Positions 2,361-13,286 of a stretch of 64,000 nucleotides of DNA are shown piece after piece. Source of the stretch: Flavobacteriales bacterium (lineage in GTDB: Bacteria > Bacteroidota > Bacteroidia > Flavobacteriales_F > PHOS-HE28); the NCBI GenBank assembly GCA_044226515.1, contig JBGAGX010000003.1, forward strand, positions 136,721-200,720, in the 5' to 3' direction. A model generated the notes under the pieces. That model was not told the DNA's origin and searched no databases. It worked only from the letters and a program-made list of their open reading frames with translations. Made by a program: the position numbers and the translations under genes. Numbering within the stretch: the first letter of the stretch is position 1; each line of letters starts with the position of its first letter.

Positions 2361-2460
2361 GCACTGGTCGGTTCCAAGCCGGTCCTGGTCACCGGGTGTG
2401 GTGCGGATCGTTGGAGCCGATAACTTTAGGACCCGCTCCAAACCATACAACCCTAACACG

Positions 2461-4173
2461 ATGAAAAAACTATACGCTACGCTGACGGCCATCCTGGCCA
2501 TGGCCACCGTGCAGGCCCAGGTGGTCTTCTCCGTGGAGGCGCCGTCGGCACTGCAAGGCAACTACGCTTTCACCTATCCCGCCCAAGGATCGGGCTGGGG
2601 CTGCCCGGACCTGTTGATCCCGGCCAATGCCGTGCTGGACACGGCGGTCTTCGCCTTCGATGACACCGCCGCCGATTCCCTGGCCTGCGACACGGTGGTG
2701 AACGTGGCCCAGGTGACCGGAAAGATCGCGGTCGTGTACCGTGGCTCCTGCAACTTCAGCCTGAAAGCGCTGATGTGCCAGAACGCCGGTGCCGTGGCCG
2801 TGGTGATCATCAACAACATCCCCGGCCCGCCCGTGGGCATGGGCGCCGGCACCTATGGCGCCGATGTCACCATCCCCGTGGCCATGATCTCCGATGCGGA
2901 CGGTGCGCTCCTGCGACCCGAGATCGAGGCTGGGAACGTGGTGATCTTCCTGGGCAACAAGCAGGGCCTGTACGACGAGGACCTCGGTTTCTACAAGCCG
3001 GACATCCAGATGGCGAAGTCCACCGGCCGCCCGAAGTTGGTGAGCAACGATGGCACCGAGTTCTCGGTACGTCCGGCCTGCTGGGTGCATAACTACGGGA
3101 ACAATGACCAGACCGGTGTGAGCGTGACCGCCACGATCTCGCAGAACGGCACCGCCCTGTACACCGAGACGGCCACGGCCGTGGACATCATCTCCGGTGA
3201 CAGCTCCTTCTTCACCATGCCGGAGTTCACACCGGGCAGCTGGGACGGTTACTACACCTTGGACTACCAGATCAACATGGGTGCGACCGATGAGTATCCG
3301 GGGGACAACGCCTTCTCCTCGGCGTTCGTGGTCGATTCCGTGCTCGCGTACGGTGTGGTCGATGAAGTGACCGGGCTGCCGACGCCGGGACCCCACTACC
3401 GTCCGAGCACCTCCACCACCAGCTTCACCAGCTGCCTGAGCTTCATGGACGCCAACGCCAGCCGCATGGCCGCCATGGGCCTTTACACCTCCGCGGTGGC
3501 CGCCACCGGCGGAACCCTCGAAGGGGAGTACCTGGAGACCACTGCCTACCAGTGGGACGACGTCTTCACCGGGATCAGCGATGCCAACTTCGGCTTCAAC
3601 AGCCTTACCCCGGTGGGCAGCGGCGAGTACACCTACAATGCCGACCTCCCCAACGAGCGCATCTACATCCCCTTCTTCGACCCGGTGATGCTGCAGGACA
3701 ACACGCGCTACCTGTTCTGTGTGACCACGTACAGCACCACGGTGTACCTGGGTTATGACGACACGTACGACTACGACGAGAACATCACCTACGACGACCA
3801 GCCGGTGAGCCCGATCAGCAACGACGGCACCTGGTACGGCCTCGGCTTCGGCACGGACGTGACCTCCGCCGTGGGCGTGCTGATGGGCAACTTCGACGTG
3901 AGCGTGAACGAGACGGCCGCCATGCAGACCGTGAACGCCTACCCGAACCCCGCAACCGACCGCGTGTGGCTTGACGTGGCCGGCATGAGCGGCACCGGCA
4001 CGCTGATCGTGCGCGACGCGATGGGTCGCGAGGTGAGCGCCCAGCGCCTGCAACTGGGTACCGACCGCAAGGTGGACATGAGCGTGGGCGACCTGTCCAA
4101 CGGCGCCTACCTCTTCGAACTGCGCGATGCCGCCGGCAAGGTGCGCAGCTTCCGCGTGGTGGTGGCCCGCTGA
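2461..4173 (+). CDS. Secreted PA-domain protein with T9SS type A C-terminal sorting domain
   Basis: Signal peptide MKKLYATL...AQAQ; PA domain GKIAVVYRGSCNFSLKALMCQNAGAVAVVIINN; C-terminal AYPNPATD...LSNGAYLFEL. Confidence 0.8.
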   Translation: MKKLYATLTAILAMATVQAQVVFSVEAPSALQGNYAFTYPAQGSGWGCPDLLIPANAVLDTAVFAFDDTAADSLACDTVVNVAQVTGKIAVVYRGSCNFSLKALMCQNAGAVAVVIINNIPGPPVGMGAGTYGADVTIPVAMISDADGALLRPEIEAGNVVIFLGNKQGLYDEDLGFYKPDIQMAKSTGRPKLVSNDGTEFSVRPACWVHNYGNNDQTGVSVTATISQNGTALYTETATAVDIISGDSSFFTMPEFTPGSWDGYYTLDYQINMGATDEYPGDNAFSSAFVVDSVLAYGVVDEVTGLPTPGPHYRPSTSTTSFTSCLSFMDANASRMAAMGLYTSAVAATGGTLEGEYLETTAYQWDDVFTGISDANFGFNSLTPVGSGEYTYNADLPNERIYIPFFDPVMLQDNTRYLFCVTTYSTTVYLGYDDTYDYDENITYDDQPVSPISNDGTWYGLGFGTDVTSAVGVLMGNFDVSVNETAAMQTVNAYPNPATDRVWLDVAGMSGTGTLIVRDAMGREVSAQRLQLGTDRKVDMSVGDLSNGAYLFELRDAAGKVRSFRVVVAR

Positions 4174-4229: not shown

Positions 4230-4826
4230 TCAGCGCCGGAAGATGAGCTGGATGGTGGAGGCGATGATCCGCAGGTCGAGCCAGAAGCTGCGCTCCCGCA
4301 CGTACCGCAGGTCGAGCGCGATCTTCGCCGGCATCACCTCCTCGATGTAGGTGCGCTCCGGATCGGTGGAACGCGCGAGCAGCTCGTTCTCGTCCACGTA
4401 GTCCATGCTGGCCATGCCCGTGATGCCGGGGCGAACGCTCAGGACCTGGCGCTGCTCGGGCGTGTACAGCGCCACGTAGCGCGGCACCTCCGGGCGGGGG
4501 CCTACGATGCTCATGTCGCCCACGAGCACGTTCACCAGCTGCGGCAGTTCATCAAGCTTGGTCTTCCGCAGGAAATAGCCCACCGAGGTGATCCGTGGAT
4601 CCCGGCCGCCGATGGTGAGCTGACCCTTGGCCTCGCTATCGGGGCGCATGCTCCGGAACTTCAGCAGCCTGAACGCACGTCCGTTCCGCCCCACCCGCAC
4701 CTGCCGGAAGAAGGCCCCACCCGGCGAAGTGAGCGCCACGGCCAGGGCGAAGACCAGCAGGACGGGCAGCAGCACCGCCAGGGCCACCAGGGCGAACACC
4801 AGGTCGAAGGCGCGCTTGATCAGCAT
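4230..4826 (-). CDS. Bacterial sugar transferase (polyprenyl-phosphate glycosylphosphotransferase)
   Basis: KRAFDL, FRLLKFRSM, LRKTKLDELPQLVNVLVGDMSIVGPRPE motifs. Confidence 0.92.
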   Translation of the reverse strand: MLIKRAFDLVFALVALAVLLPVLLVFALAVALTSPGGAFFRQVRVGRNGRAFRLLKFRSMRPDSEAKGQLTIGGRDPRITSVGYFLRKTKLDELPQLVNVLVGDMSIVGPRPEVPRYVALYTPEQRQVLSVRPGITGMASMDYVDENELLARSTDPERTYIEEVMPAKIALDLRYVRERSFWLDLRIIASTIQLIFRR

Positions 4827-4829
4827 GGT

Positions 4830-6035
4830 TCAGCCGAGCACCTCGGCGACGGCCTCGTTGACGGCTCGCACCACCGTGTCGACCTGCGCGTCGGTGAGGT
4901 CGTAGTACACCGGCAGGCTGATCTCGCGGCTGTAGTGCCGGTAGGCGTTCGGAAAGTCGGCGATGCGGTAGCCCAGTTCGCGGTACACGGTGAGCATGGG
5001 CATGGGGATGAAATGCACGTTCACGCTCACCTCGCGGCGGGCGATCGCGGCGATGACGGCATCGCGCTGCGCCTCGGAGGCCTCGTTGAGGCGGAGCATG
5101 TACAGGTGGTATGAACCTTCACGTTCCGCATCGGCGAAGAGCGGCACCTGGTACCGGCGATCGTTCCCGAACGCCGCGTTGTAGCGCTCGCAGATCGCCT
5201 TGCGCCGCGGCAGGGTCTCGCTGTCGTACCGATCGAGCTCCACCAGGCCGATGGCCGCCTGCAGATCGGTCATGTTGCACTTCCATCCGGCCATGGTCAC
5301 ATCGTAACGCCAGGCGCCGGCCTGCATCTTGCTCAGGGCGTCCTTGCTCTGCCCGTGCAGGCTCATCACGTTGAAGTGCCGGTAGAGCGCCGCGTTGTCG
5401 AAGGGGGCGGGCAGGTTAAGCGCCAGCGCACCGCCTTCGGCGGTGGTCAGGTTCTTCACCGCGTGAAAGCTGAAGCCGGTGATGTCGGCGATGGCCCCCA
5501 CCCTTCGGCCGCCGATACGGGCCCCGAAGGAATGGGCCGCATCGCTCAGCACCAGCATCCGGCCGAGCTGCTGCTGCACGTCGCCCTCGGGATGGAAGTG
5601 CGCACGCATCTCATGGGCGAGCTGCATGGCCCCGGGCTGGTCCGCCGGCAACCCTCCGATGTCCACCGGCATGATGCACTTGGTGGCCGGGGTCACCAGC
5701 TTCCGGGCGGCCTCGAGGTCCATGGTGAGGTCGTCCTTCACGTCCACCATCACGGGCCTCGCGCCCACGTGGAGCACGATGTTGGCCGTGGCGCAGTAGG
5801 TGTAGGCGGGCACCAGCACCTCGTCGCCAGGCCCGATGCCGAACCAGCGCAGCACCAGCTCGCAGGCATTGGTCCACGCGTTCAGCGCGATCACCTGCTC
5901 CACACCGCAGTACGCGGCGAGGCGCTTCTCGAACTCCTTGGTGCGGGGCCCGGTGGTGATCCAGCCTGAACGAAGCGCGGCGGTGACCTCGGCGATCGTG
6001 CGCTCGTCGATGCGGGGCGGGCTGAAGGGGATCAT
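4830..6035 (-). CDS. DegT/DnrJ/EryC1/StrS PLP aminotransferase
   Basis: MIPFSPPRI, SGWITTGP, SDAAHSFGA, FSFHAVKNLTTAEGG (PLP lysine). Confidence 0.92.
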   Translation of the reverse strand: MIPFSPPRIDERTIAEVTAALRSGWITTGPRTKEFEKRLAAYCGVEQVIALNAWTNACELVLRWFGIGPGDEVLVPAYTYCATANIVLHVGARPVMVDVKDDLTMDLEAARKLVTPATKCIMPVDIGGLPADQPGAMQLAHEMRAHFHPEGDVQQQLGRMLVLSDAAHSFGARIGGRRVGAIADITGFSFHAVKNLTTAEGGALALNLPAPFDNAALYRHFNVMSLHGQSKDALSKMQAGAWRYDVTMAGWKCNMTDLQAAIGLVELDRYDSETLPRRKAICERYNAAFGNDRRYQVPLFADAEREGSYHLYMLRLNEASEAQRDAVIAAIARREVSVNVHFIPMPMLTVYRELGYRIADFPNAYRHYSREISLPVYYDLTDAQVDTVVRAVNEAVAEVLG

Positions 6036-6046
6036 GGGCGGCGAAA

Positions 6047-9000
6047 TTAGCCCCGCCCCGCCCGCCGCTGGAGCACCTGCTGCAGGTCGCTCCACAGGGC
6101 ACGGCTGATCACTGCGCGATCGAAGTGCTCCCGGACGTACCGCGCGCCGTTCTCACCGTGCCGCGCGCGCAATGCGGGGTCGGCGATGTACCGCCGCACG
6201 GCCAAGGCCAGCGCACTGGGGTCCTCGGGCTCGAAGTACAGCCCGCAATCACCCTCCCGGATGAAGAGGTCGCGCGCCTCGCCGTCCACACCCAGCAGCA
6301 GTGGCCTTCCAAGGGCGAGGGCCTCGAAGATCTTGCTGGGGATGGCCCCCTTGAAGAGGTCGTTGCGGCGCAGGGGTACCACCACGGCGTCGCTCTCCTG
6401 CACCAGGCCCAGCACGCGGGCACGGGGCATGCGTTCCAGAAAGCGGACGTTGCGCAGCCCCTTGTCGTTCACCATGGCCTGCAGCCCGGCCTTCACCGGT
6501 CCTTCGCCCACGAGCAGGAAGAGGACGTTGGTATCGACCAGTTGCTCCGCGGCCTGTGCGATCGTCCCAAGCCCCTGCGCGTGGCCGATGATGCCTGCAT
6601 AGGTGCACACCACCGCCTCCCGGGGGATGCCCAGCGCTTCGCGCATGCCCGGCGTGGCGGGTACCTTGGCGATCGCCGGCAGGTCGACACCGTTGGGGAC
6701 CCAGCGCACCTGCTTGCCGGGCATCCGCCGCGCGATGTCGTTCACGATGCCCTTCGTCTGCCCGGTGATGAGGGCGCTGCGACGGTAGCAGCTCTCCTCC
6801 AACACGGTGCTGGCCGCGATCAAGGCGCGGTTCCGCACAAGACCCAGCTGCACCGCACTTTCCGGCCACAGGTCGCTCACGTTGAAGATGAGCGCGGCGC
6901 CTTTCGCCCGTGCCAGTCCCATGGCCGTGATACCGAGGAAAAGCGGCGGGGACTCCACCAGCAGCAGGTCCGACCGGCGTAGCTCGCACAGCCCCACCCA
7001 CAAGGCCGAGAACACGAAGGAGAAGTAGTTGGAGAGCCGGGCCAGCAATCCCTTGCCCGTGCTCGCGTGCAGCCAGGCACGACGCACCTCAAGCCCGTCC
7101 ATCCGCTCGCAACGGTACACGGCACCCCGGTAGCCCTCATGCACCACCATCTCGGGGTAGTTGGGCATTCCGGTGAGCACGGTCACCTCCACCCCTTGGG
7201 CGGCCAGGGCTGTGGCGATGGCGTGCAGGCGGTTCTGCGGCGCACCGGTCTCGGGCGGGAAATACTGCGTGAGCAGCACCAGGCGGGGTGCGACGTTCGC
7301 ATCCCGTGGGCCACGCAAGGCGAGCAGCAGCCCCACCACGGCAAGGAACACCACGCCGGCCTGCACCTCCAGCATCGACTCAACGCTCCAGTTGAGGAGC
7401 AGCAAGGCGATGAAGAGGGCACCCACCGTGTCCCGTTCCCGCAGCGAGACGAGCATGGGCAGGAGCAGCAGCATGGCGATCAACACGCCGCCCAGCACGC
7501 CGAGCGTGAGCGGTGTCTGCAGCAACTGGCTGTGCGCGTTCAGGCGGCGGGCCAGCGGTTCCTCATACCCTTTGGCGGCGTAGCGATCCACCAGTTCGTT
7601 CTTCACGTCCCCGGTACCCGTGCCCAGCAGCCAGTGCTCCCGCAACAGTTCGCCGGCCGCCTGCCAGGTGAGCTGCCGCACCTCGCTGCTGCCGGTGGCG
7701 TTGGGTGCCGGCGGCCCGTTGCGTTGAACCGCGATGAGCTGATCGACCTTCTCGCGCATGAAGGGCGAGACCTGTACGGACATCGCGAAGACGGAGATCC
7801 CGACAAGGCCGGCCAGCAGCATGACCCTGCGCTGCGGCGTACGCCAGCGCACCACCAGCAGCACGAGGTAGAGGAGCACGAGGGCGCCCCACCCTGCCTT
7901 GGAACCGCTGAAGAGGATGCCCACCACGAGCAGGAAGGGTGTGGCGAGGCGGTAACCGCGATCACCCGGACGGTGCTCGCGCAGCAGCACCACCGCGAGG
8001 GCCAGGCACAGGTGCATCGCGTAATAGCTCGGGTGCATGAACAAGCTGAACCGCGATGCGATCCAATGGCCCGACCAGAAACCAGGGCCGCCCGGCAGCA
8101 CGTCGGCGACCGTGCGCACACCCGCCACCACAAGGCAGACCACCGTCGCCAGCACCGCACCACCCACGAAGGCGCTCAGCAGGGTGCGCCCGCCCACGCG
8201 TGAGCGATCGGGCACCACCCACAGGACCAGTGGCACCAGCCCCATGGAAGCCTTGATGCCCAGGTCGAACCAGGCGTAGCCCATGTCCGTGCTCCAGAGC
8301 AGTCCCAGCAGGTAGAGCGCATAGAGCGCGAGGGACCAAAGCAGCACGCTGCCAGGCGCGGGAGAGCTCCGGGGGCCTTTCGCCGGGGCGTGGTGAACGA
8401 CCAAGGCGATACCCGCGGCCACGAGCAAGGCAGGCACCGCGGCGGTCCATAGCGACATGCCAAGCGCCAGCAGTGCCAGGAGGGTGCCGGCCCAAGGCCC
8501 ATGTGCCGCGAACAGGCTGCGCCCCGGCTGCGTCCCTTCCTCCTCCGCGGCCCCGCGGGTGAGCGCTCGGCTCCGTTCGCCCGGCCGGCCACGCAGCATC
8601 ACCAAGTGGACCACACCCTTGAGGTAACCGATGCCGTAGGCCACATGCAACGTGAGAAAGGCCACGAACACCCCCCCCACATCACGCGGCCGCGCCGCCG
8701 CCATCATGGACGAGATGAGCGCCACCACCAGGTACAGGCCGAAGCCGGCGAGCCAGGCGAGGCGCAGCGCCGGTCGTGCAAGAGCGAGCGGGGCTGCGAT
8801 CAGGAACAAGGTCCACAGAGCGGGCACCACCTGCCTCCACGTGGTCACCACCCGGTGCTTGCGGTTCACGTACACCTTCCAGTAGCCGTACTGGTCGTAC
8901 TGCCTGAAGAGCCGGGAAAGGCTGGAGCGCACGTAGTACTGGGAACGGATGGTCGGATCGAGCACGATGCGCAGGCCGGCGCGGGTCACCCGGTAGTTGA

Positions 9001-9607
9001 ACTCATCGTCCTGGTTGCGCACCAGCTCCTCATCGAAATACCCCACCGCGTCGAAGACCTCCTTCCGGTAGGCTCCGAACGCGACGGTGTCCACAGGACC
9101 CGCCTTTCGTCCGGTGCGGAAATGGGCGTTGCCCACGCCGAAGGGATGGCCCATGGCCGCGCCGATCCGCCGGGCCATCGCATTGTCGTAGACGTTCTCG
9201 ATGATGCCTCCGGCACAGCCCGCGGTACGGTCGGCGGCAAGCACCTCCACATTGCGGCGCACCATGTCGGGGGCCACGGTGGAATGTGCACCAAGGATGA
9301 TGGCCACGTCGTAGCCTCCCATCCGCAGGCCGATGTTCAAGGCGTGCGGCGTGGTGCGGTGCGGGTTGTCGACGAGGGCGATCCACGGGTGCTTCGCCGA
9401 GAAGGACGCCACCACGTCGCGTGTGCCATCGTCGCTCATGCCATCGCACACGCGCACGGCGATGCGCTCCTTGGGCATGTCGGAATCGACAAGGCTCTCC
9501 AGGCAACGACCGATGTGGTCGCGTTCATTGCGGCAGGGAATGACGACCACCACGCGCGGCTCGGCGGGAAGGGGAGGCAGTTCGCGCAGCGCAGCCGTAC
9601 GGTTCAT
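6047..9607 (-). CDS. Fused GT2 glycosyltransferase / O-antigen ligase-like membrane domain / GT4 glycosyltransferase
   Basis: One uninterrupted frame. GT2: VVIPCRNE, DGMSDDGT, RNQDDE. Wzy_C-like: WLLGTGTGD, NAHSQLLQ. GT4: LLTQYFPPETGAPQNR, IPSKIFEA. ATG 9607 overlaps the upstream TGA (ATGA). Confidence 0.8.
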   Translation of the reverse strand: MNRTAALRELPPLPAEPRVVVVIPCRNERDHIGRCLESLVDSDMPKERIAVRVCDGMSDDGTRDVVASFSAKHPWIALVDNPHRTTPHALNIGLRMGGYDVAIILGAHSTVAPDMVRRNVEVLAADRTAGCAGGIIENVYDNAMARRIGAAMGHPFGVGNAHFRTGRKAGPVDTVAFGAYRKEVFDAVGYFDEELVRNQDDEFNYRVTRAGLRIVLDPTIRSQYYVRSSLSRLFRQYDQYGYWKVYVNRKHRVVTTWRQVVPALWTLFLIAAPLALARPALRLAWLAGFGLYLVVALISSMMAAARPRDVGGVFVAFLTLHVAYGIGYLKGVVHLVMLRGRPGERSRALTRGAAEEEGTQPGRSLFAAHGPWAGTLLALLALGMSLWTAAVPALLVAAGIALVVHHAPAKGPRSSPAPGSVLLWSLALYALYLLGLLWSTDMGYAWFDLGIKASMGLVPLVLWVVPDRSRVGGRTLLSAFVGGAVLATVVCLVVAGVRTVADVLPGGPGFWSGHWIASRFSLFMHPSYYAMHLCLALAVVLLREHRPGDRGYRLATPFLLVVGILFSGSKAGWGALVLLYLVLLVVRWRTPQRRVMLLAGLVGISVFAMSVQVSPFMREKVDQLIAVQRNGPPAPNATGSSEVRQLTWQAAGELLREHWLLGTGTGDVKNELVDRYAAKGYEEPLARRLNAHSQLLQTPLTLGVLGGVLIAMLLLLPMLVSLRERDTVGALFIALLLLNWSVESMLEVQAGVVFLAVVGLLLALRGPRDANVAPRLVLLTQYFPPETGAPQNRLHAIATALAAQGVEVTVLTGMPNYPEMVVHEGYRGAVYRCERMDGLEVRRAWLHASTGKGLLARLSNYFSFVFSALWVGLCELRRSDLLLVESPPLFLGITAMGLARAKGAALIFNVSDLWPESAVQLGLVRNRALIAASTVLEESCYRRSALITGQTKGIVNDIARRMPGKQVRWVPNGVDLPAIAKVPATPGMREALGIPREAVVCTYAGIIGHAQGLGTIAQAAEQLVDTNVLFLLVGEGPVKAGLQAMVNDKGLRNVRFLERMPRARVLGLVQESDAVVVPLRRNDLFKGAIPSKIFEALALGRPLLLGVDGEARDLFIREGDCGLYFEPEDPSALALAVRRYIADPALRARHGENGARYVREHFDRAVISRALWSDLQQVLQRRAGRG

Positions 9608-11031
9608 GTCGCCTCGGTGTTCCTCCAACGGGCGAACAGGATGGCCGCCCCAACGAGCACCATGGGGATGAGGAAGCCCTCCAGCAGCAGGGTCCGGTAC
9701 GCCTCCGGACCGTTCCGCAGCACCTGGGGCAGGAAGGCCACGAAGAGGAAGGGCAACATCACCAGCGCACCACGGCCCTTCCTGCCGCCTTGGGCCACGC
9801 GCAGGGTCCACCCCCACACCAACCCGAGCAACAGTCCGCCGAGCAAGGGCCCGATCAAACCGAAGTTGAGGTACCACGCGGCGGCATGGTGGATCGTATA
9901 ACCCTGCCCCGGGGTCAGCCGCGCGCCTTCGGCGTACACGTCGTACGCGTTCTTCGGGCGGGGCGCGCCCAGCGCCGCCGGCACCGCGCTCGAGGCCAGG
10001 TAGCGGAAGCTCACGAACGGTTCGGGCCGCACGTTCATCCGCAGGATCCCATAGAGGGAGAAATGCGCGGCGAAGAGCTCGTTGTTCAGCACGGCGCCGC
10101 CCACACGCCGCAGGGTCCCTTCAGGGTGACGCGGCACGTGCGCGATGGCCGGTAGCCGGAACGGTCCTTCGTCCTTCACCTCCTCCTTCTTCAAGGTGCG
10201 CAGCTCGTTCACCGTGAAGCCGCGCAGCTGGCCGCCCACCAGGAGGGCCACGCCCAGGGTGATCCACAATGGAAGGCCACGCCGCAGGGCACCGGCACCG
10301 AGCACGGACCATAGGAAGAGCACCGCCGCGATGGCCATGGTGAGCAGGGAATGCCGGTCGCCGATCACCGACAGGTAGAGGCATAGCAGGCCCACCATGA
10401 TGGGAAAGCCCCATCGGGTCCAGCTCACCCTGCCACGGAAGGGTCCGGAACCTGCGTTCGATGCGATCACCACCACCTGGCCGAAGAGCAGGCAGAACGA
10501 AGCGATGCCGTTCGCCACGTTGTGCAATGTGCCCCAGCGGCCGGGCGTGGCCCGCAGCACTTGGTAGAACGAACGGCCCGTGGCCACCGCATCGTTCAGT
10601 TGCGGCCACACGAGCACGGCGGACGCCACCATGGCCAACGCTCCGAGCACGAGCAATGCCCGCAGGTCGATGCGCACGGGAGCGGGCCGCGTGGTGCGGT
10701 CCAGCTTGCGCGTGCTTCCATCGAGCGCCAGCAGCACCGCCAGCAGGAAAACACCGTAGAGCGCGAGCGCCTTCACATAGTCCCCGTCCAGCTCGAACGG
10801 GAACATCTTCTCCATGAGGTAGTAGTACGCCAACCCGATGCGATGGCCATGGAAGCCCGTGGCCGCATCACCGATGAAGAACCAGGCACCGGCCAATGTC
10901 CACACGTACAGGATGACGGCCCCGACGAGCACGCCGGGATCGACCGTGCGCCGATGGACGCGCCGCACCGCCCATCCGAACGCCAGCGTGATGGTAAGGA
11001 GCAGGAGATATCCGCTGACGACGGGGCTCAT
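9604..11031 (-). CDS. Multi-TM O-antigen polymerase (Wzy)-like protein
   Basis: Many hydrophobic segments, GDRH and YLNFGLIG motifs, position inside a glycan locus; ATGA coupling at both ends. Confidence 0.6.
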   Translation of the reverse strand: MSPVVSGYLLLLTITLAFGWAVRRVHRRTVDPGVLVGAVILYVWTLAGAWFFIGDAATGFHGHRIGLAYYYLMEKMFPFELDGDYVKALALYGVFLLAVLLALDGSTRKLDRTTRPAPVRIDLRALLVLGALAMVASAVLVWPQLNDAVATGRSFYQVLRATPGRWGTLHNVANGIASFCLLFGQVVVIASNAGSGPFRGRVSWTRWGFPIMVGLLCLYLSVIGDRHSLLTMAIAAVLFLWSVLGAGALRRGLPLWITLGVALLVGGQLRGFTVNELRTLKKEEVKDEGPFRLPAIAHVPRHPEGTLRRVGGAVLNNELFAAHFSLYGILRMNVRPEPFVSFRYLASSAVPAALGAPRPKNAYDVYAEGARLTPGQGYTIHHAAAWYLNFGLIGPLLGGLLLGLVWGWTLRVAQGGRKGRGALVMLPFLFVAFLPQVLRNGPEAYRTLLLEGFLIPMVLVGAAILFARWRNTEAT

Positions 11032-13286
11032 GCGTGGATCATCAAGCTGCGGAGATGATCGACCAGGGCCTTGTTCGTCGCGGCGGCATCGCAGCCGTTC
11101 GCGGCGAGCAGCTCCCTGCCATTGCTGCGCCGCCCGTCGCGCAGCGTGGCGAGCAGGGCATCGGCCAGCGCGCGGGCATCCTGCGCCACCACGGCCCCGG
11201 GGAGGACGCCCCGCAGGCGATGGGCCGTATCGCCCACGTCGTTGCACACCACCGGAAGGCCACAGGCCATGGCCTCCTTCACCATGCCGGGGCTGCCCTC
11301 CGAATCACTGCAAAGGAGCAGGGCATCCGCCGCGTTCATCAGCAGCGGCATGCGGTCGTGCGGGATGCCGCCCTGGAGCACCTCGAGCCGCGCATCGGGA
11401 AGCTCACGCCGCACCAGCTCCATCGCCTGCTCGGCCAGGTCGAGCCGCTTCACCGCCGGATTGTTCCCGTTGAAGAGGATCACGCGCCCTTCGGCCGGCC
11501 AGCCCAGTTGCGCGCGGCATTCGTGCTTCGGCATGGGCGTGAAATGCCGTGCGTCCACACCGGCCGGGATCACCCTGGCGTCGCTGGTGCGCCACCAGAG
11601 CTGATCGCGCAGGCCTTCGCTCACGCACACGATACCACCGGCGAAAAAGGCCGCGGCCTGCGAGAACATGCGGCCGATCAGGTCCCGCCACCGGCCATCG
11701 GCGGGGGTGCGGTTAAGGTCGGAGCCCAGGAAGTACACCACCACGGGGATGGAGCTGGAAAGCACGGTGAAGAGGCCCGAGACCGATCCGTAGTAGGCCA
11801 GCACCACGTCCGGTCGGTCGCTCTTCAGGCGGGCCTTCATGCGGCGACGCGAAGCCCAGAGGCGGGCGATCGACGACCGGCTCTCCAGGTGGAAGTAGGT
11901 GACGGTGGCCCCATGGTCGCGCGCGAAGGCATCGGTCTGCTTGTAGGCGAAGGGATAGGCGCCGCTGCCTTCCGGGGCCGGGATCACCACCAGCACCCGG
12001 ATGTCGCCGGCCTTCCGTTCGGAAAGGCGGAGCAGCTCGGCGTCCACGAACCGCACATCGCGCCAGGTGGCCAGACCCAGGTAGCTGAGCGCCGCCACCA
12101 GCACCCAGGCCACGAAGCTCACCGGGGTGGGCACCGCGAAGTGCACCAGGCTGCCGGCCATGAGGATGAGGAAGGCGTAGGTGAGGTTCAACCCGTTGCG
12201 CGGCGTGTGGTAGAACGCGTCGAGCACGCTGCGCAGCCCAACGAACAGGCCGAAGGGCAGCGCGCCCAGGAACACGATGCGGCTCATGGTCACGTAGTCC
12301 GCGTAGGTCTCGCCGAGGTAGAGGTGCAGCAGGGGGTCGGCGAGCAGCTCGAACAGCAGGGTCATGCCGGCGCTGGCGAGCAAAGTGAGCCGCATGATCG
12401 TGCCGATGCGGCGGCTGAGCCCGGCATGATCGCCCGAAGCGAGCTGGGAAGCGCTCGCGGGCAAGAGCACCAGGGCGAGCGGCGAGAACACGGCCGCCGC
12501 GAGGTTCAACAGCGTGGTGCCGAAGCCGATCTCGCCGCTGGCCGAGAGCCCGTGGGTGCGGGCCACCACGTAAACCGGTATGGTGAGCAGCGCCCCGAAG
12601 GCGAGGTCGCCGGGCACACGGGGCACCCCATAGCGGAGCAGTTCACCGCGTTCACGCCGGGCGCTGCCCACCGCGGGCTGCAGCAGTGCGGGGGCCAGGG
12701 CGAGGAGCGCGAGGACCAGCCAGCTGAACCCCGTGGCCCAACAGATGAGCACGAGGTCATCGAGCAGCAGGAAGGACACGCACGGGGAAACGGCCAGCAC
12801 CAGCACCTGCACCGCGTTCGCCCGCACAAGATGGCGCTGACCGCGAAGGAACGCGTAGCCCAGTCCGTACAGCGAAACGGTGGCCGTCATCAGCGCAAGG
12901 GGCGGGATGAGGGCGTGCTGCTCGGCGGAGCCGAACACGAGCCACGAAAGTTGCTCCGGGAAGAGAAGGCCGATGGCCACGGTGGCCGCGGAGAGCGGGA
13001 GCACCCAGCCCAGGGCGGCCACCAGGTAGCGGCGCTGCTCCTCGGGCCGGCTCTTCATGGCCACGAAGCGGGTGATCCCCACCACCGCGCCCATCAGCAG
13101 CAGCGGATAGATGAAGGACACCGTGCGGCGCACCACCACATATTGGTCGAGCGCGTCGCGGCCATCCTGCGCGGCGAGGCGATAGGCCAGCACCATGCCC
13201 ACCATGGCAAGGCCCTCGGCGGCGTAGGTGAGCAGGCTGTCTCGTCCATCGCTCGAGCGGAGCATGGACAGGATCCGTTGCAGCAT
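11028..13286 (-). CDS. Fused Wzx/MATE-like flippase and GT4 glycosyltransferase
   Basis: About 410 aa of ~12 TM helices, then a soluble GT-B domain with SDSEGSPGMVKEAMACGLPVV (E-x7-E). Confidence 0.75.
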   Translation of the reverse strand: MLQRILSMLRSSDGRDSLLTYAAEGLAMVGMVLAYRLAAQDGRDALDQYVVVRRTVSFIYPLLLMGAVVGITRFVAMKSRPEEQRRYLVAALGWVLPLSAATVAIGLLFPEQLSWLVFGSAEQHALIPPLALMTATVSLYGLGYAFLRGQRHLVRANAVQVLVLAVSPCVSFLLLDDLVLICWATGFSWLVLALLALAPALLQPAVGSARRERGELLRYGVPRVPGDLAFGALLTIPVYVVARTHGLSASGEIGFGTTLLNLAAAVFSPLALVLLPASASQLASGDHAGLSRRIGTIMRLTLLASAGMTLLFELLADPLLHLYLGETYADYVTMSRIVFLGALPFGLFVGLRSVLDAFYHTPRNGLNLTYAFLILMAGSLVHFAVPTPVSFVAWVLVAALSYLGLATWRDVRFVDAELLRLSERKAGDIRVLVVIPAPEGSGAYPFAYKQTDAFARDHGATVTYFHLESRSSIARLWASRRRMKARLKSDRPDVVLAYYGSVSGLFTVLSSSIPVVVYFLGSDLNRTPADGRWRDLIGRMFSQAAAFFAGGIVCVSEGLRDQLWWRTSDARVIPAGVDARHFTPMPKHECRAQLGWPAEGRVILFNGNNPAVKRLDLAEQAMELVRRELPDARLEVLQGGIPHDRMPLLMNAADALLLCSDSEGSPGMVKEAMACGLPVVCNDVGDTAHRLRGVLPGAVVAQDARALADALLATLRDGRRSNGRELLAANGCDAAATNKALVDHLRSLMIHA

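Follow-up and report, generated by a model that had tools for sequence, protein, structure and literature searches.

A three-domain gene in a single coding frame

The DNA analysed here, referred to below as the window, is a stretch of 64,000 nt from an uncultured Flavobacteriales bacterium (PHOS-HE28; assembly GCA_044226515.1, contig JBGAGX010000003.1, positions 136,721-200,720 of the forward strand). Its minus strand carries, from 9607 to 6047, a single stop-free open reading frame (ORF), whose predicted product of 1186 amino acids (aa) consists of an N-terminal glycosyltransferase (GT) domain of family GT2, a central membrane domain of the Wzy_C/WaaL type, and a C-terminal GT domain of family GT4. 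A preliminary description of this DNA had proposed one stop-free frame with two GT folds around a polytopic domain, without naming the strand, and this frame is confirmed here by the ORF itself, by Pfam matches, and by codon-position composition. We conclude that the three-domain ORF is very likely real. Judging from sequence comparison, it probably represents one true gene, whose product would be an inner-membrane enzyme with three activities in a lipid-linked glycan pathway of the Wzx/Wzy type.

The open frame extends beyond the gene (9877..6047). The gene starts at 9607 with an ATG that overlaps the stop codon of the upstream gene (ATGA). Since the codon-position GC pattern 5' of 9607 follows the frame of the gene before it (9604..11247), the coding frame of the fusion is taken to begin at this ATG. 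The window DNA has a GC content of 68%, and stop-free shadow ORFs are numerous in it; because such frames are common, the continuity of GC content at third codon positions (GC3) matters. GC3 was 0.78-0.96 over residues 11-1151 in one frame, with neither a dip nor a switch at the two domain junctions, and the Pfam domains of GT2, Wzy_C, and GT4 all lie in this same frame, each above its gathering cut-off. An alternative genetic code or read-through was considered as an explanation and is unneeded, the fusion frame being open under table 11.

The GT2 domain was recognized by Glycos_transf_2 (PF00535; residues 21-187, 57.1 bits) and by Glyco_tranf_2_3 (PF13641; residues 17-252, 52.1 bits), and its best solved relative by sequence in the Protein Data Bank (PDB) was the membrane GT2 6YV7 (E 8.5e-11). 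Where a DXD motif would be expected, the clade was seen by eye to have a conserved ILGAH(S/A), and it also has the motifs DGMSDDGT and NQDDEFN. The central domain matched Wzy_C (PF04932) over residues 557-710 with 57.7 bits, versus a cut-off of 31.7 bits, and was recovered also in a whole-genome family search. A 24-sequence profile of this domain, run against all PDB sequences, matched only the ligase WaaL (7TPG, E 1.7e-13) and an oligosaccharyltransferase (9RMK, E 4.3e-7). R644 and H692 of the central domain were invariant in both alignments examined (A1 and A2), and the profile consensus aligned them with 'VRLKIW' and 'AHND' of WaaL 7TPG, at positions that we take to be the catalytic residues of WaaL.

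The GT4 domain (residues 793-1162 overall) was covered by Glyco_transf_4 (PF13439; residues 793-976, 33.5 bits) and Glycos_transf_1 (PF00534; residues 989-1155, 64.9 bits). Its top NCBIfam family was WcaI (NF007640), with a score of 199.4 bits that lies below the 276-bit cut-off, and we therefore refer to the domain as WcaI-like. In a Foldseek search the domain resembled MshA, BshA, PglA, and WaaG (E 1e-15 to 1e-10, target TM-score 0.7-0.8); the search with the full-length model returned GT4 structures only and no match for the central domain.

Predicted fold and membrane topology

A structural model was obtained by running AlphaFold2 on a 19-sequence alignment, and helices were assigned by DSSP. 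The mean predicted local distance difference test score (pLDDT) was 83.4 and the predicted template modelling score (pTM) 0.55; pLDDT fell below 50 within the two interdomain linkers (Table 1), at the first four residues, and in three GT4 loops of 3-4 residues each. Residues 19-226 displayed the strand/helix alternation of the GT-A type, and residues 775-1186 a Rossmann-type alternation, with the GT-B fold confirmed by Foldseek. Helix 9 of the central domain is followed by a helical loop of ~80 residues.

The numbers of Lys and Arg residues on short loops were 1, 9, 2, 2, 2, 2, 1 on the predicted inside versus 1, 0, 0, 1, 0, 0 on the predicted outside. Because these counts, with the GT2 domain placed inside, fit the positive-inside rule, and the chain ends inside before GT4, the prediction puts both GT domains in the cytoplasm and the conserved loop in the periplasm. 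The earlier expectation that both GT domains face the cytoplasm was thus borne out by prediction, through the modelled helices and the charge pattern. The amphipathic helix 307-337 that follows the two hydrophobic helices of the GT2 module probably lies at the membrane interface and does not cross the membrane. The features of a WaaL-type enzyme, i.e., 12 transmembrane (TM) helices, cytoplasmic termini, a big periplasmic loop between TM9 and TM10, and a conserved Arg and His in that loop, were all present in the prediction.

Table 1. Features of the three-domain gene, and genes of the operon that contains it (window positions)
Feature	Position (strand)	Residues or length	Description
Whole fused ORF (gene 3 of the operon)	6047..9607 (-)	1186 aa + stop	Three-domain fusion; ATG at 9607 overlapping the upstream stop (ATGA)
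GT2 (GT-A) catalytic domain	8852..9559 (-)	17-252	Predicted cytoplasmic; PF00535/PF13641
GT2 membrane anchor	8597..8839 (-)	257-277, 279-303, 307-337	Two hydrophobic helices and an amphipathic helix; from AlphaFold2/DSSP, hydropathy, and charge counts
Linker 1	8516..8596 (-)	338-364	Arg-rich; pLDDT <50 at 348-362; former GT2 C-terminus ('LTR') and former intergenic spacer
GGG codon	8552..8554 (-)	Gly352	Right after conserved 'LTR'; position of the GT2 stop in four unfused relatives
Central Wzy_C/WaaL-type domain	7313..8515 (-)	365-765	12 predicted TM helices, both ends predicted cytoplasmic; PF04932
Large predicted periplasmic loop, TM9-TM10	7529..7768 (-)	614-693	R644, GTGTGD (662-667), R688, H692 (LNAHSQ)
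Linker 2	7283..7312 (-)	766-775	GPRDANVAPR; pLDDT <50 at 767-772; holds the CCCC run
CTG codon	7280..7282 (-)	Leu776	Position of an in-frame Met in the fused relative L001; two codons away from where unfused GT4 genes begin with Met
WcaI-like GT4 (GT-B) domain	6050..7282 (-)	776-1186	Predicted cytoplasmic; PF00534/PF13439
Peptides expected from the fused product			GAAEEEGTQPGR, DANVAPR, LVLLTQYFPPETGAPQNR
Gene 1	11028..13286 (-)	752 aa	Wzx-like flippase (N-terminal) fused to GT4 (C-terminal)
Gene 2	9604..11031 (-)	475 aa	Conserved polytopic membrane protein, candidate polymerase
Gene 4	4830..6095 (-)		DegT/PseC-type sugar aminotransferase; listed GTG start overlaps the end of the fusion
Gene 5	4230..4826 (-)	198 aa	Small polyprenyl-phosphate phosphoglycosyl transferase (Bac_transf), initiating enzyme

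Fusion junctions

Both linkers cited in the preliminary description were found in the protein, RGRPGERSRALTRGAAEEEGTQPG at residues 339-362 (~8591-8520) and RGPRDANVAPR at residues 765-775 (7315-7283). Across junction 1, which joins GT2 to Wzy_C, 13 GT2-Wzy_C proteins aligned with the window protein without gaps. The codon that follows the conserved 'LTR' specified Gly (GGG, GGC, or GGA) in all seven fused genes, the window gene included, and was TGA or TAG in each of the four unfused relatives in which the motif was found (L006, L009, L010, and L088); in two of the latter, L009 and L010, the Wzy_C gene lies in the same frame as GT2 after a short spacer. This comparison shows junction 1 to be a stop-to-Gly substitution, through which a spacer already in frame became a linker. 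Since the Gly codon is common to the window gene and six other fused genes, junction 1 is not a private error of this sequence.

Across junction 2, between Wzy_C and GT4, five Wzy_C-GT4 proteins aligned gap-free with the window protein. The closest relative (L001/P0003, 71% identity, from the separate NCBI assembly GCA_020438055.1) has the same in-frame joint and a linker of equal length, made of different nucleotides, without the C run, and with an in-frame Met kept beside the joint. L004, L021, L023, and P0035 are likewise fused in frame at this junction, which occurs in at least four lineages besides that of L001, and another Wzy_C-GT4 protein, P0020, represents 16 sequences on 28 contigs. 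Five relatives with unfused genes (L011, L030, L031, L032, and L045) have an ATGA stop/start overlap, with Wzy_C one frame off GT4. Comparison of the two states shows junction 2 to be a frame change by which this overlap was lost.

It had been cautioned earlier that an out-of-frame ATG (MRTSHP) precedes a CCCC run at the GT4 junction, where a 1-nt error might be concealed. Both the ATG and the run were found, at ~7310-7288. When an extra C was added in silico to the run (7288-7291), a plausible start of a 418-aa GT4 was obtained (MRTSHPRLVLLTQYFPPE... / MRTSHPRLVLLTQ...). The same addition put the Wzy_C tail out of frame for 50 codons and produced an overlap of ~165 nt with GT4, versus 4 nt in the unfused relatives. 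A frameshift in the CCCC run was rejected as less parsimonious than an in-frame joint common to L001; with the gap-free alignment to fused homologues of independent assemblies and the extra-C test, a 1-nt error at the GT4 junction is judged to be very probably absent. The codon next to CTG of Leu776, that of Val777, is GTG, and an internal start is therefore possible there.

Distribution of the three-part architecture

When 5.8 billion protein clusters were searched through a word index, all three domains were found together only in the window's own protein. Two-domain relatives recovered from the clusters were GT2-Wzy_C proteins of ~760 aa (at most 57% identity), Wzy_C-GT4 proteins of 772-828 aa (at most 71%), and GT4-GT2 proteins of ~756-774 aa. 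An exhaustive HMMER search over 1.84 billion representatives revealed no second GT2-Wzy_C-GT4 protein among the 150 best matches, nor was one present in 80 loci that were classified ORF by ORF from a set of one genome per species (185,579 species), or in a six-frame search of 40 relatives, 24 of them from the same genus. In a metagenome scan of Joint Genome Institute (JGI) data, aimed at a second, near-identical copy, none of 80 loci had an ORF with two or more of the domains, and the best identity was 65%. Full-length homologues of the same architecture, for which the preliminary description had suggested a search, were thus absent from the clusters, from the HMMER matches listed, and from 160 loci.

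Several candidates were tried and rejected. The long proteins P0080 (1159 aa) and P0065 (993 aa) proved to be Wzy_C-GT4 fusions with an unassigned N-terminal extension that is not GT2. Three loci in which tblastn matches cover residues 10-1178 (L051, L070, and L087) contain either separate genes or a permuted GT4-GT2 fusion plus Wzy_C.

The operon slot is very variable within the genus. GT4 followed by Wzy_C, and GT2 followed by Wzy_C, were each seen many times; Wzy_C followed by GT4 was found in G017, separate GT4, GT2, and Wzy_C genes in G004, a GT2-Wzy_C fusion in G016, and a GT4-GT2 fusion followed by Wzy_C in L006 and L070. The permuted GT4-GT2 fusion with a separate Wzy_C gene downstream (L006:3648-5972 and L070:2365-4602; ~756-774 aa, also represented by P0005, P0017, and P0021-P0033) amounts to the three modules of the window gene in rotated order. 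The earlier statement that the three parts are normally separate genes therefore needs qualification: some relatives do have them separate, but pairwise fusions of all three kinds are common, and only the triple is unique. Neither do all relatives encode three separate genes; G004 does, and apparently so does L051 (where the third gene was matched by tblastn only), and others are fused at either junction.

A few loci carry unexpected titles. L080, L065/L067, and L032 are titled Bifidobacterium breve, Chitinophaga pinensis, and Chryseobacterium gleum, respectively; they are contigs of metagenome-assembled genomes (MAGs) with a locus of the Bacteroidota type and are probably mislabelled or mis-binned. 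In the tree described below, Wzy_C of L080 adjoins MAGs titled 'Bacteroidota bacterium'.

History of the fusion

A maximum-likelihood tree of the central domain was built from 87 sequences. The window sequence was sister to L001, which is a Wzy_C-GT4 fusion (support 100/100), and this pair was nested within the fused GT2-Wzy_C genes L002 and L008 (99/92). The remaining Wzy_C-GT4 fusions (L021/L023 and L004) fell elsewhere on the tree, in a clade where they are surrounded by unfused genes. At least three changes of the Wzy_C-GT4 state are required, which may be gains or losses. The simplest reading suggests that junction 1 was already present in the gene when junction 2 was added, and, tentatively, that L001 later lost its GT2. 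In L001, Wzy_C starts ~100 nt past the stop codon of the preceding gene, and a run of N (~940-990) lies inside the N-terminal part of the Wzy_C-GT4 gene, whose protein record is partial. Because of the N run at this point, the absence of GT2 from L001 is slightly uncertain, and the loss is put forward as tentative.

Operon context

The fusion gene is the third of five genes in a compact operon that runs on the minus strand from 13286 to 4230 (Table 1). In the product of gene 1, weak MatE/WzxE matches cover residues ~29-340 and a GT4 domain covers residues ~430-720. This Wzx-GT4 fusion is conserved, since full-length homologues occupy the same position in seven loci (L002, L006, L024, L049, L052, L074, and L088). 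The 475-aa product of gene 2 matched no Pfam or NCBIfam family, and no PDB entry by sequence or fold; its AlphaFold2 model is confident (pLDDT 85, pTM 0.87). Faint matches to PF14296 (O-ag_pol_Wzy), far below significance, were seen in 4 of 15 of its homologues. The protein may represent a divergent polymerase family.

The true start of the DegT gene is probably slightly downstream of the listed GTG. DegT and phosphoglycosyl transferase genes were found 3' of GT/Wzy_C genes in dozens of Bacteroidota loci, with identities of 70-89% in most loci of the Flavobacteriales type, falling to ~51-60% in Bacteroidota further removed. The operon is directly followed, on the plus strand (2398-4173), by a gene for a PA-domain protein with Por_Secre_tail, a sorting signal of type IX secretion; L006 has the same neighbour, and the protein is in keeping with a Bacteroidota origin of the window.

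The gene content expected around a Wzy polymerase is present, as the operon includes a Wzx flippase, GTs, and a phosphoglycosyl transferase for initiation. Two polypeptides of the operon together carry, by prediction, three GTs, a flippase, and a periplasmic transferase. The central domain is strongly divergent within one genus (29-68% identity), and on inspection its clades broadly follow the type of the neighbouring GT. There are six Wzy_C-family genes in the genome. The five beyond the fusion gene, on contigs C1, C10, C23, C38, and C45, suggest that several lipid-linked glycan pathways operate in this organism.

Proposed function and alternative explanations

The fusion protein would run in the membrane from a cytoplasmic GT2, through a pair of TM helices, a helix at the membrane interface, an Arg-rich linker in the cytoplasm, the 12-helix domain, and a second cytoplasmic linker of 10 residues, to a GT4 that is again cytoplasmic. 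In the pathway that we propose, the small phosphoglycosyl transferase would prime undecaprenyl phosphate, probably with an amino sugar that the DegT aminotransferase helps to make; GT2 and GT4 of the fusion, together with the flippase-fused GT4, would lengthen the unit at the cytoplasmic side of the membrane; the Wzx part would flip it; and the central domain would transfer the undecaprenyl pyrophosphate-linked glycan on the periplasmic face. The fusion would then hold cytoplasmic and periplasmic catalysts of one pathway as a fixed 1:1:1 complex. The preliminary description had pictured a membrane-tethered assembly line. This image is not fully supported: since the central domain would act periplasmically, after flipping, the three activities are not consecutive on one membrane face.

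An assembly artefact could have arisen by a 1-nt error in the CCCC run or by a chimeric path through near-identical Wzy_C stretches of two co-occurring strains, one with GT2-Wzy_C and the other with Wzy_C-GT4. It would be compatible with the ATG just upstream of the run and the GT4 start that one extra C provides, with the occurrence of both two-domain gene types in relatives, and with the presence of the three-part form in a single MAG. The extra C, however, has its price in out-of-frame Wzy_C codons and an overlap far longer than that in unfused relatives, L001 is joined in frame at the same place by an equally long linker of different nucleotides, without a C run, and GC3 is undisturbed. 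Junction 1 would require a substitution and not an indel, and its Gly codon recurs in six other fused genes; moreover, the contig is 205.8 kb long, and the genome is 98.5% complete and 0.24% contaminated. We consider an artefact very improbable. It is also improbable, though slightly less so, that the DNA is right and the parts are nevertheless made separately by internal initiation, or are cleaved in the linkers, and function as in unfused relatives. The GTG at residue 777, one codon past the position of the in-frame Met of L001, the in-frame ATG that L001 keeps at junction 2, and the predicted disorder of both linkers would all allow this. Yet the window junction has no in-frame ATG, with CTG where L001 has Met, and the upstream parts lack a stop codon, so a full-length product is still expected; the fused state, which recurs across 39-71% identity and many lineages with at least three changes on the tree, argues that the link is tolerated or favoured.

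A further alternative accepts the fusion and assigns it another task: the central domain would be a WaaL-type ligase or a protein O-oligosaccharyltransferase, the 475-aa neighbour would be the true Wzy, and the whole would be an enzyme like Brucella WadA with two GTs. WadA, a GT joined to a ligase, provides a precedent (PMC9938171), and of all solved structures the central profile matches only WaaL 7TPG and 9RMK, to which its invariant Arg and His align. Synteny of the locus over many Bacteroidota, as expected of a core glycan pathway, and the faint PF14296 matches among homologues of the neighbour point the same way. The latter matches, however, are far below significance, and the confident model of the neighbour resembles no solved fold; some bona fide Wzy polymerases, moreover, carry Wzy_C too (PMC4815439). 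The number of Wzy_C-family genes in the genome, six, also speaks against a ligase. A cell typically needs one ligase only. The divergence of the central domain within the genus, and the broad agreement of its clades with the neighbouring GT, likewise argue for a polymerase, as divergence that tracks the GT type is the usual behaviour of repeat-unit-specific polymerases. On balance, a ligase in this position is possible, though we do not favour it. For the central domain we lean towards polymerisation as its role; ligation to lipid A-core is a tenable second choice, and transfer to protein is unlikely.

Several points weigh against our view of the gene as encoding one trifunctional membrane enzyme. 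The three-part architecture is known so far from one assembly only. The GTG at residue 777 could permit separate initiation of GT4. With a pTM of 0.55 the model gives no reliable picture of how the domains are arranged relative to one another. The even number of membrane crossings after GT2 hinges on helix 307-337 being interfacial. Finally, the choice between polymerase and ligase is clouded by the six Wzy_C paralogues and by the faint O-ag_pol_Wzy matches of the neighbour.

Implications

Uncharacterised pairwise fusions of these domains are known already from databases; what appears to be new is the three-part combination, which is unique so far. Cross-membrane fusions are widespread in Flavobacteriales, with repeated changes of state. 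The events behind the junctions can be read from the sequence: in one case a stop codon gave way to Gly, and in the other an ATGA overlap disappeared. Such fusions can be stacked into a trifunctional protein of 1186 aa. The gene is thus a clear case of the formation and stacking of fusions, but it introduces no new principle. In practical terms, genes of this type should not be 'corrected' to separate genes during annotation, and the fusion offers a natural single-chain construct for cryo-electron microscopy and for the study of coupling between cytoplasmic synthesis and periplasmic transfer.

A complex of GTs, flippase, and polymerase or ligase in Wzx/Wzy pathways has long been proposed and, to our knowledge, has never been isolated. 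The fusion hints that the steps of the pathway are carried out within a single physical assembly. Hong and Reeves (2015, PMC4863624) proposed that periplasmic O units feed back, through WaaL, on the synthesis of O units in the cytoplasm, and covalent GT/Wzy_C fusions would be the sort of physical link that their model needs. From the recurrent joining of cytoplasmic GTs to the periplasm-acting Wzy_C enzyme, with at least three changes on the tree for the Wzy_C-GT4 state alone, and from the fusion of another GT to the flippase in this operon, one may speculate further, and here we are doubtful, that the whole Wzx/Wzy pathway of this clade is an obligatory two-polypeptide trans-membrane machine, in which periplasmic events are mechanically or allosterically coupled to cytoplasmic synthesis. 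If this were true, the three-domain protein would be the fullest natural Rosetta-stone form both of the GT/Wzx/Wzy complex and of the feedback proposed in PMC4863624.

Comparison with known systems

Among the closest counterparts of the fusion are its two-domain relatives in Flavobacteriales/Bacteroidota MAGs (GT2-Wzy_C in P0004 and P0007; Wzy_C-GT4, ~790-830 aa, in P0003, P0019, and P0020; GT4-GT2 in P0005), which are true homologues with 39-71% identity, the same operon slot, and the same junction sequences. None of them has all three domains, and they are annotated merely as 'glycosyltransferase', 'GT2 family', or 'O-antigen ligase'. Taken singly, the domains resemble well-known families to different degrees. 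Membrane-anchored GT2 enzymes such as 6YV7 are the best family match for the N-terminal domain, and the clade of the fusion has, by eye, ILGAH(S/A) where DXD is usual. The colanic acid GT4 WcaI is the best family match for the C-terminal domain, yet at 199 bits it stays under the NCBIfam cut-off of 276. With WaaL of Cupriavidus metallidurans (7TPG) the central domain shares, as predicted here, 12 TM helices, cytoplasmic ends, a large periplasmic loop after TM9, and the aligned Arg and His. The GTGTGD motif in this loop is invariant in and specific to the clade of the fusion, and marks a difference from WaaL and other Wzy_C enzymes. While WaaL, Wzy_C polymerases, and oligosaccharyltransferases stand alone, the central domain here has a GT domain on each side.

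In the literature on Wzy-GT fusions, Brucella WadA was the sole characterised analogue to emerge. WadA is bifunctional and combines a cytoplasmic GT with a membrane domain that serves as O-antigen ligase (Servais et al., Nat Commun 2023, PMC9938171); in the words of its authors it forms an original class, of which few homologues exist and whose ligase domain is only distantly related to classical ligases (PMC9938171). The likeness to the fusion lies in architecture and predicted topology: in both, a cytoplasmic GT is covalently joined to a membrane domain that acts, or in our case would act, in the periplasm. WadA, however, consists of two domains, of which the GT is N-terminal, whereas the fusion has an extra C-terminal GT of another fold (GT-B); and while the ligase domain of WadA is distant from classical ligases, the central domain of the fusion is a clear member of Wzy_C.

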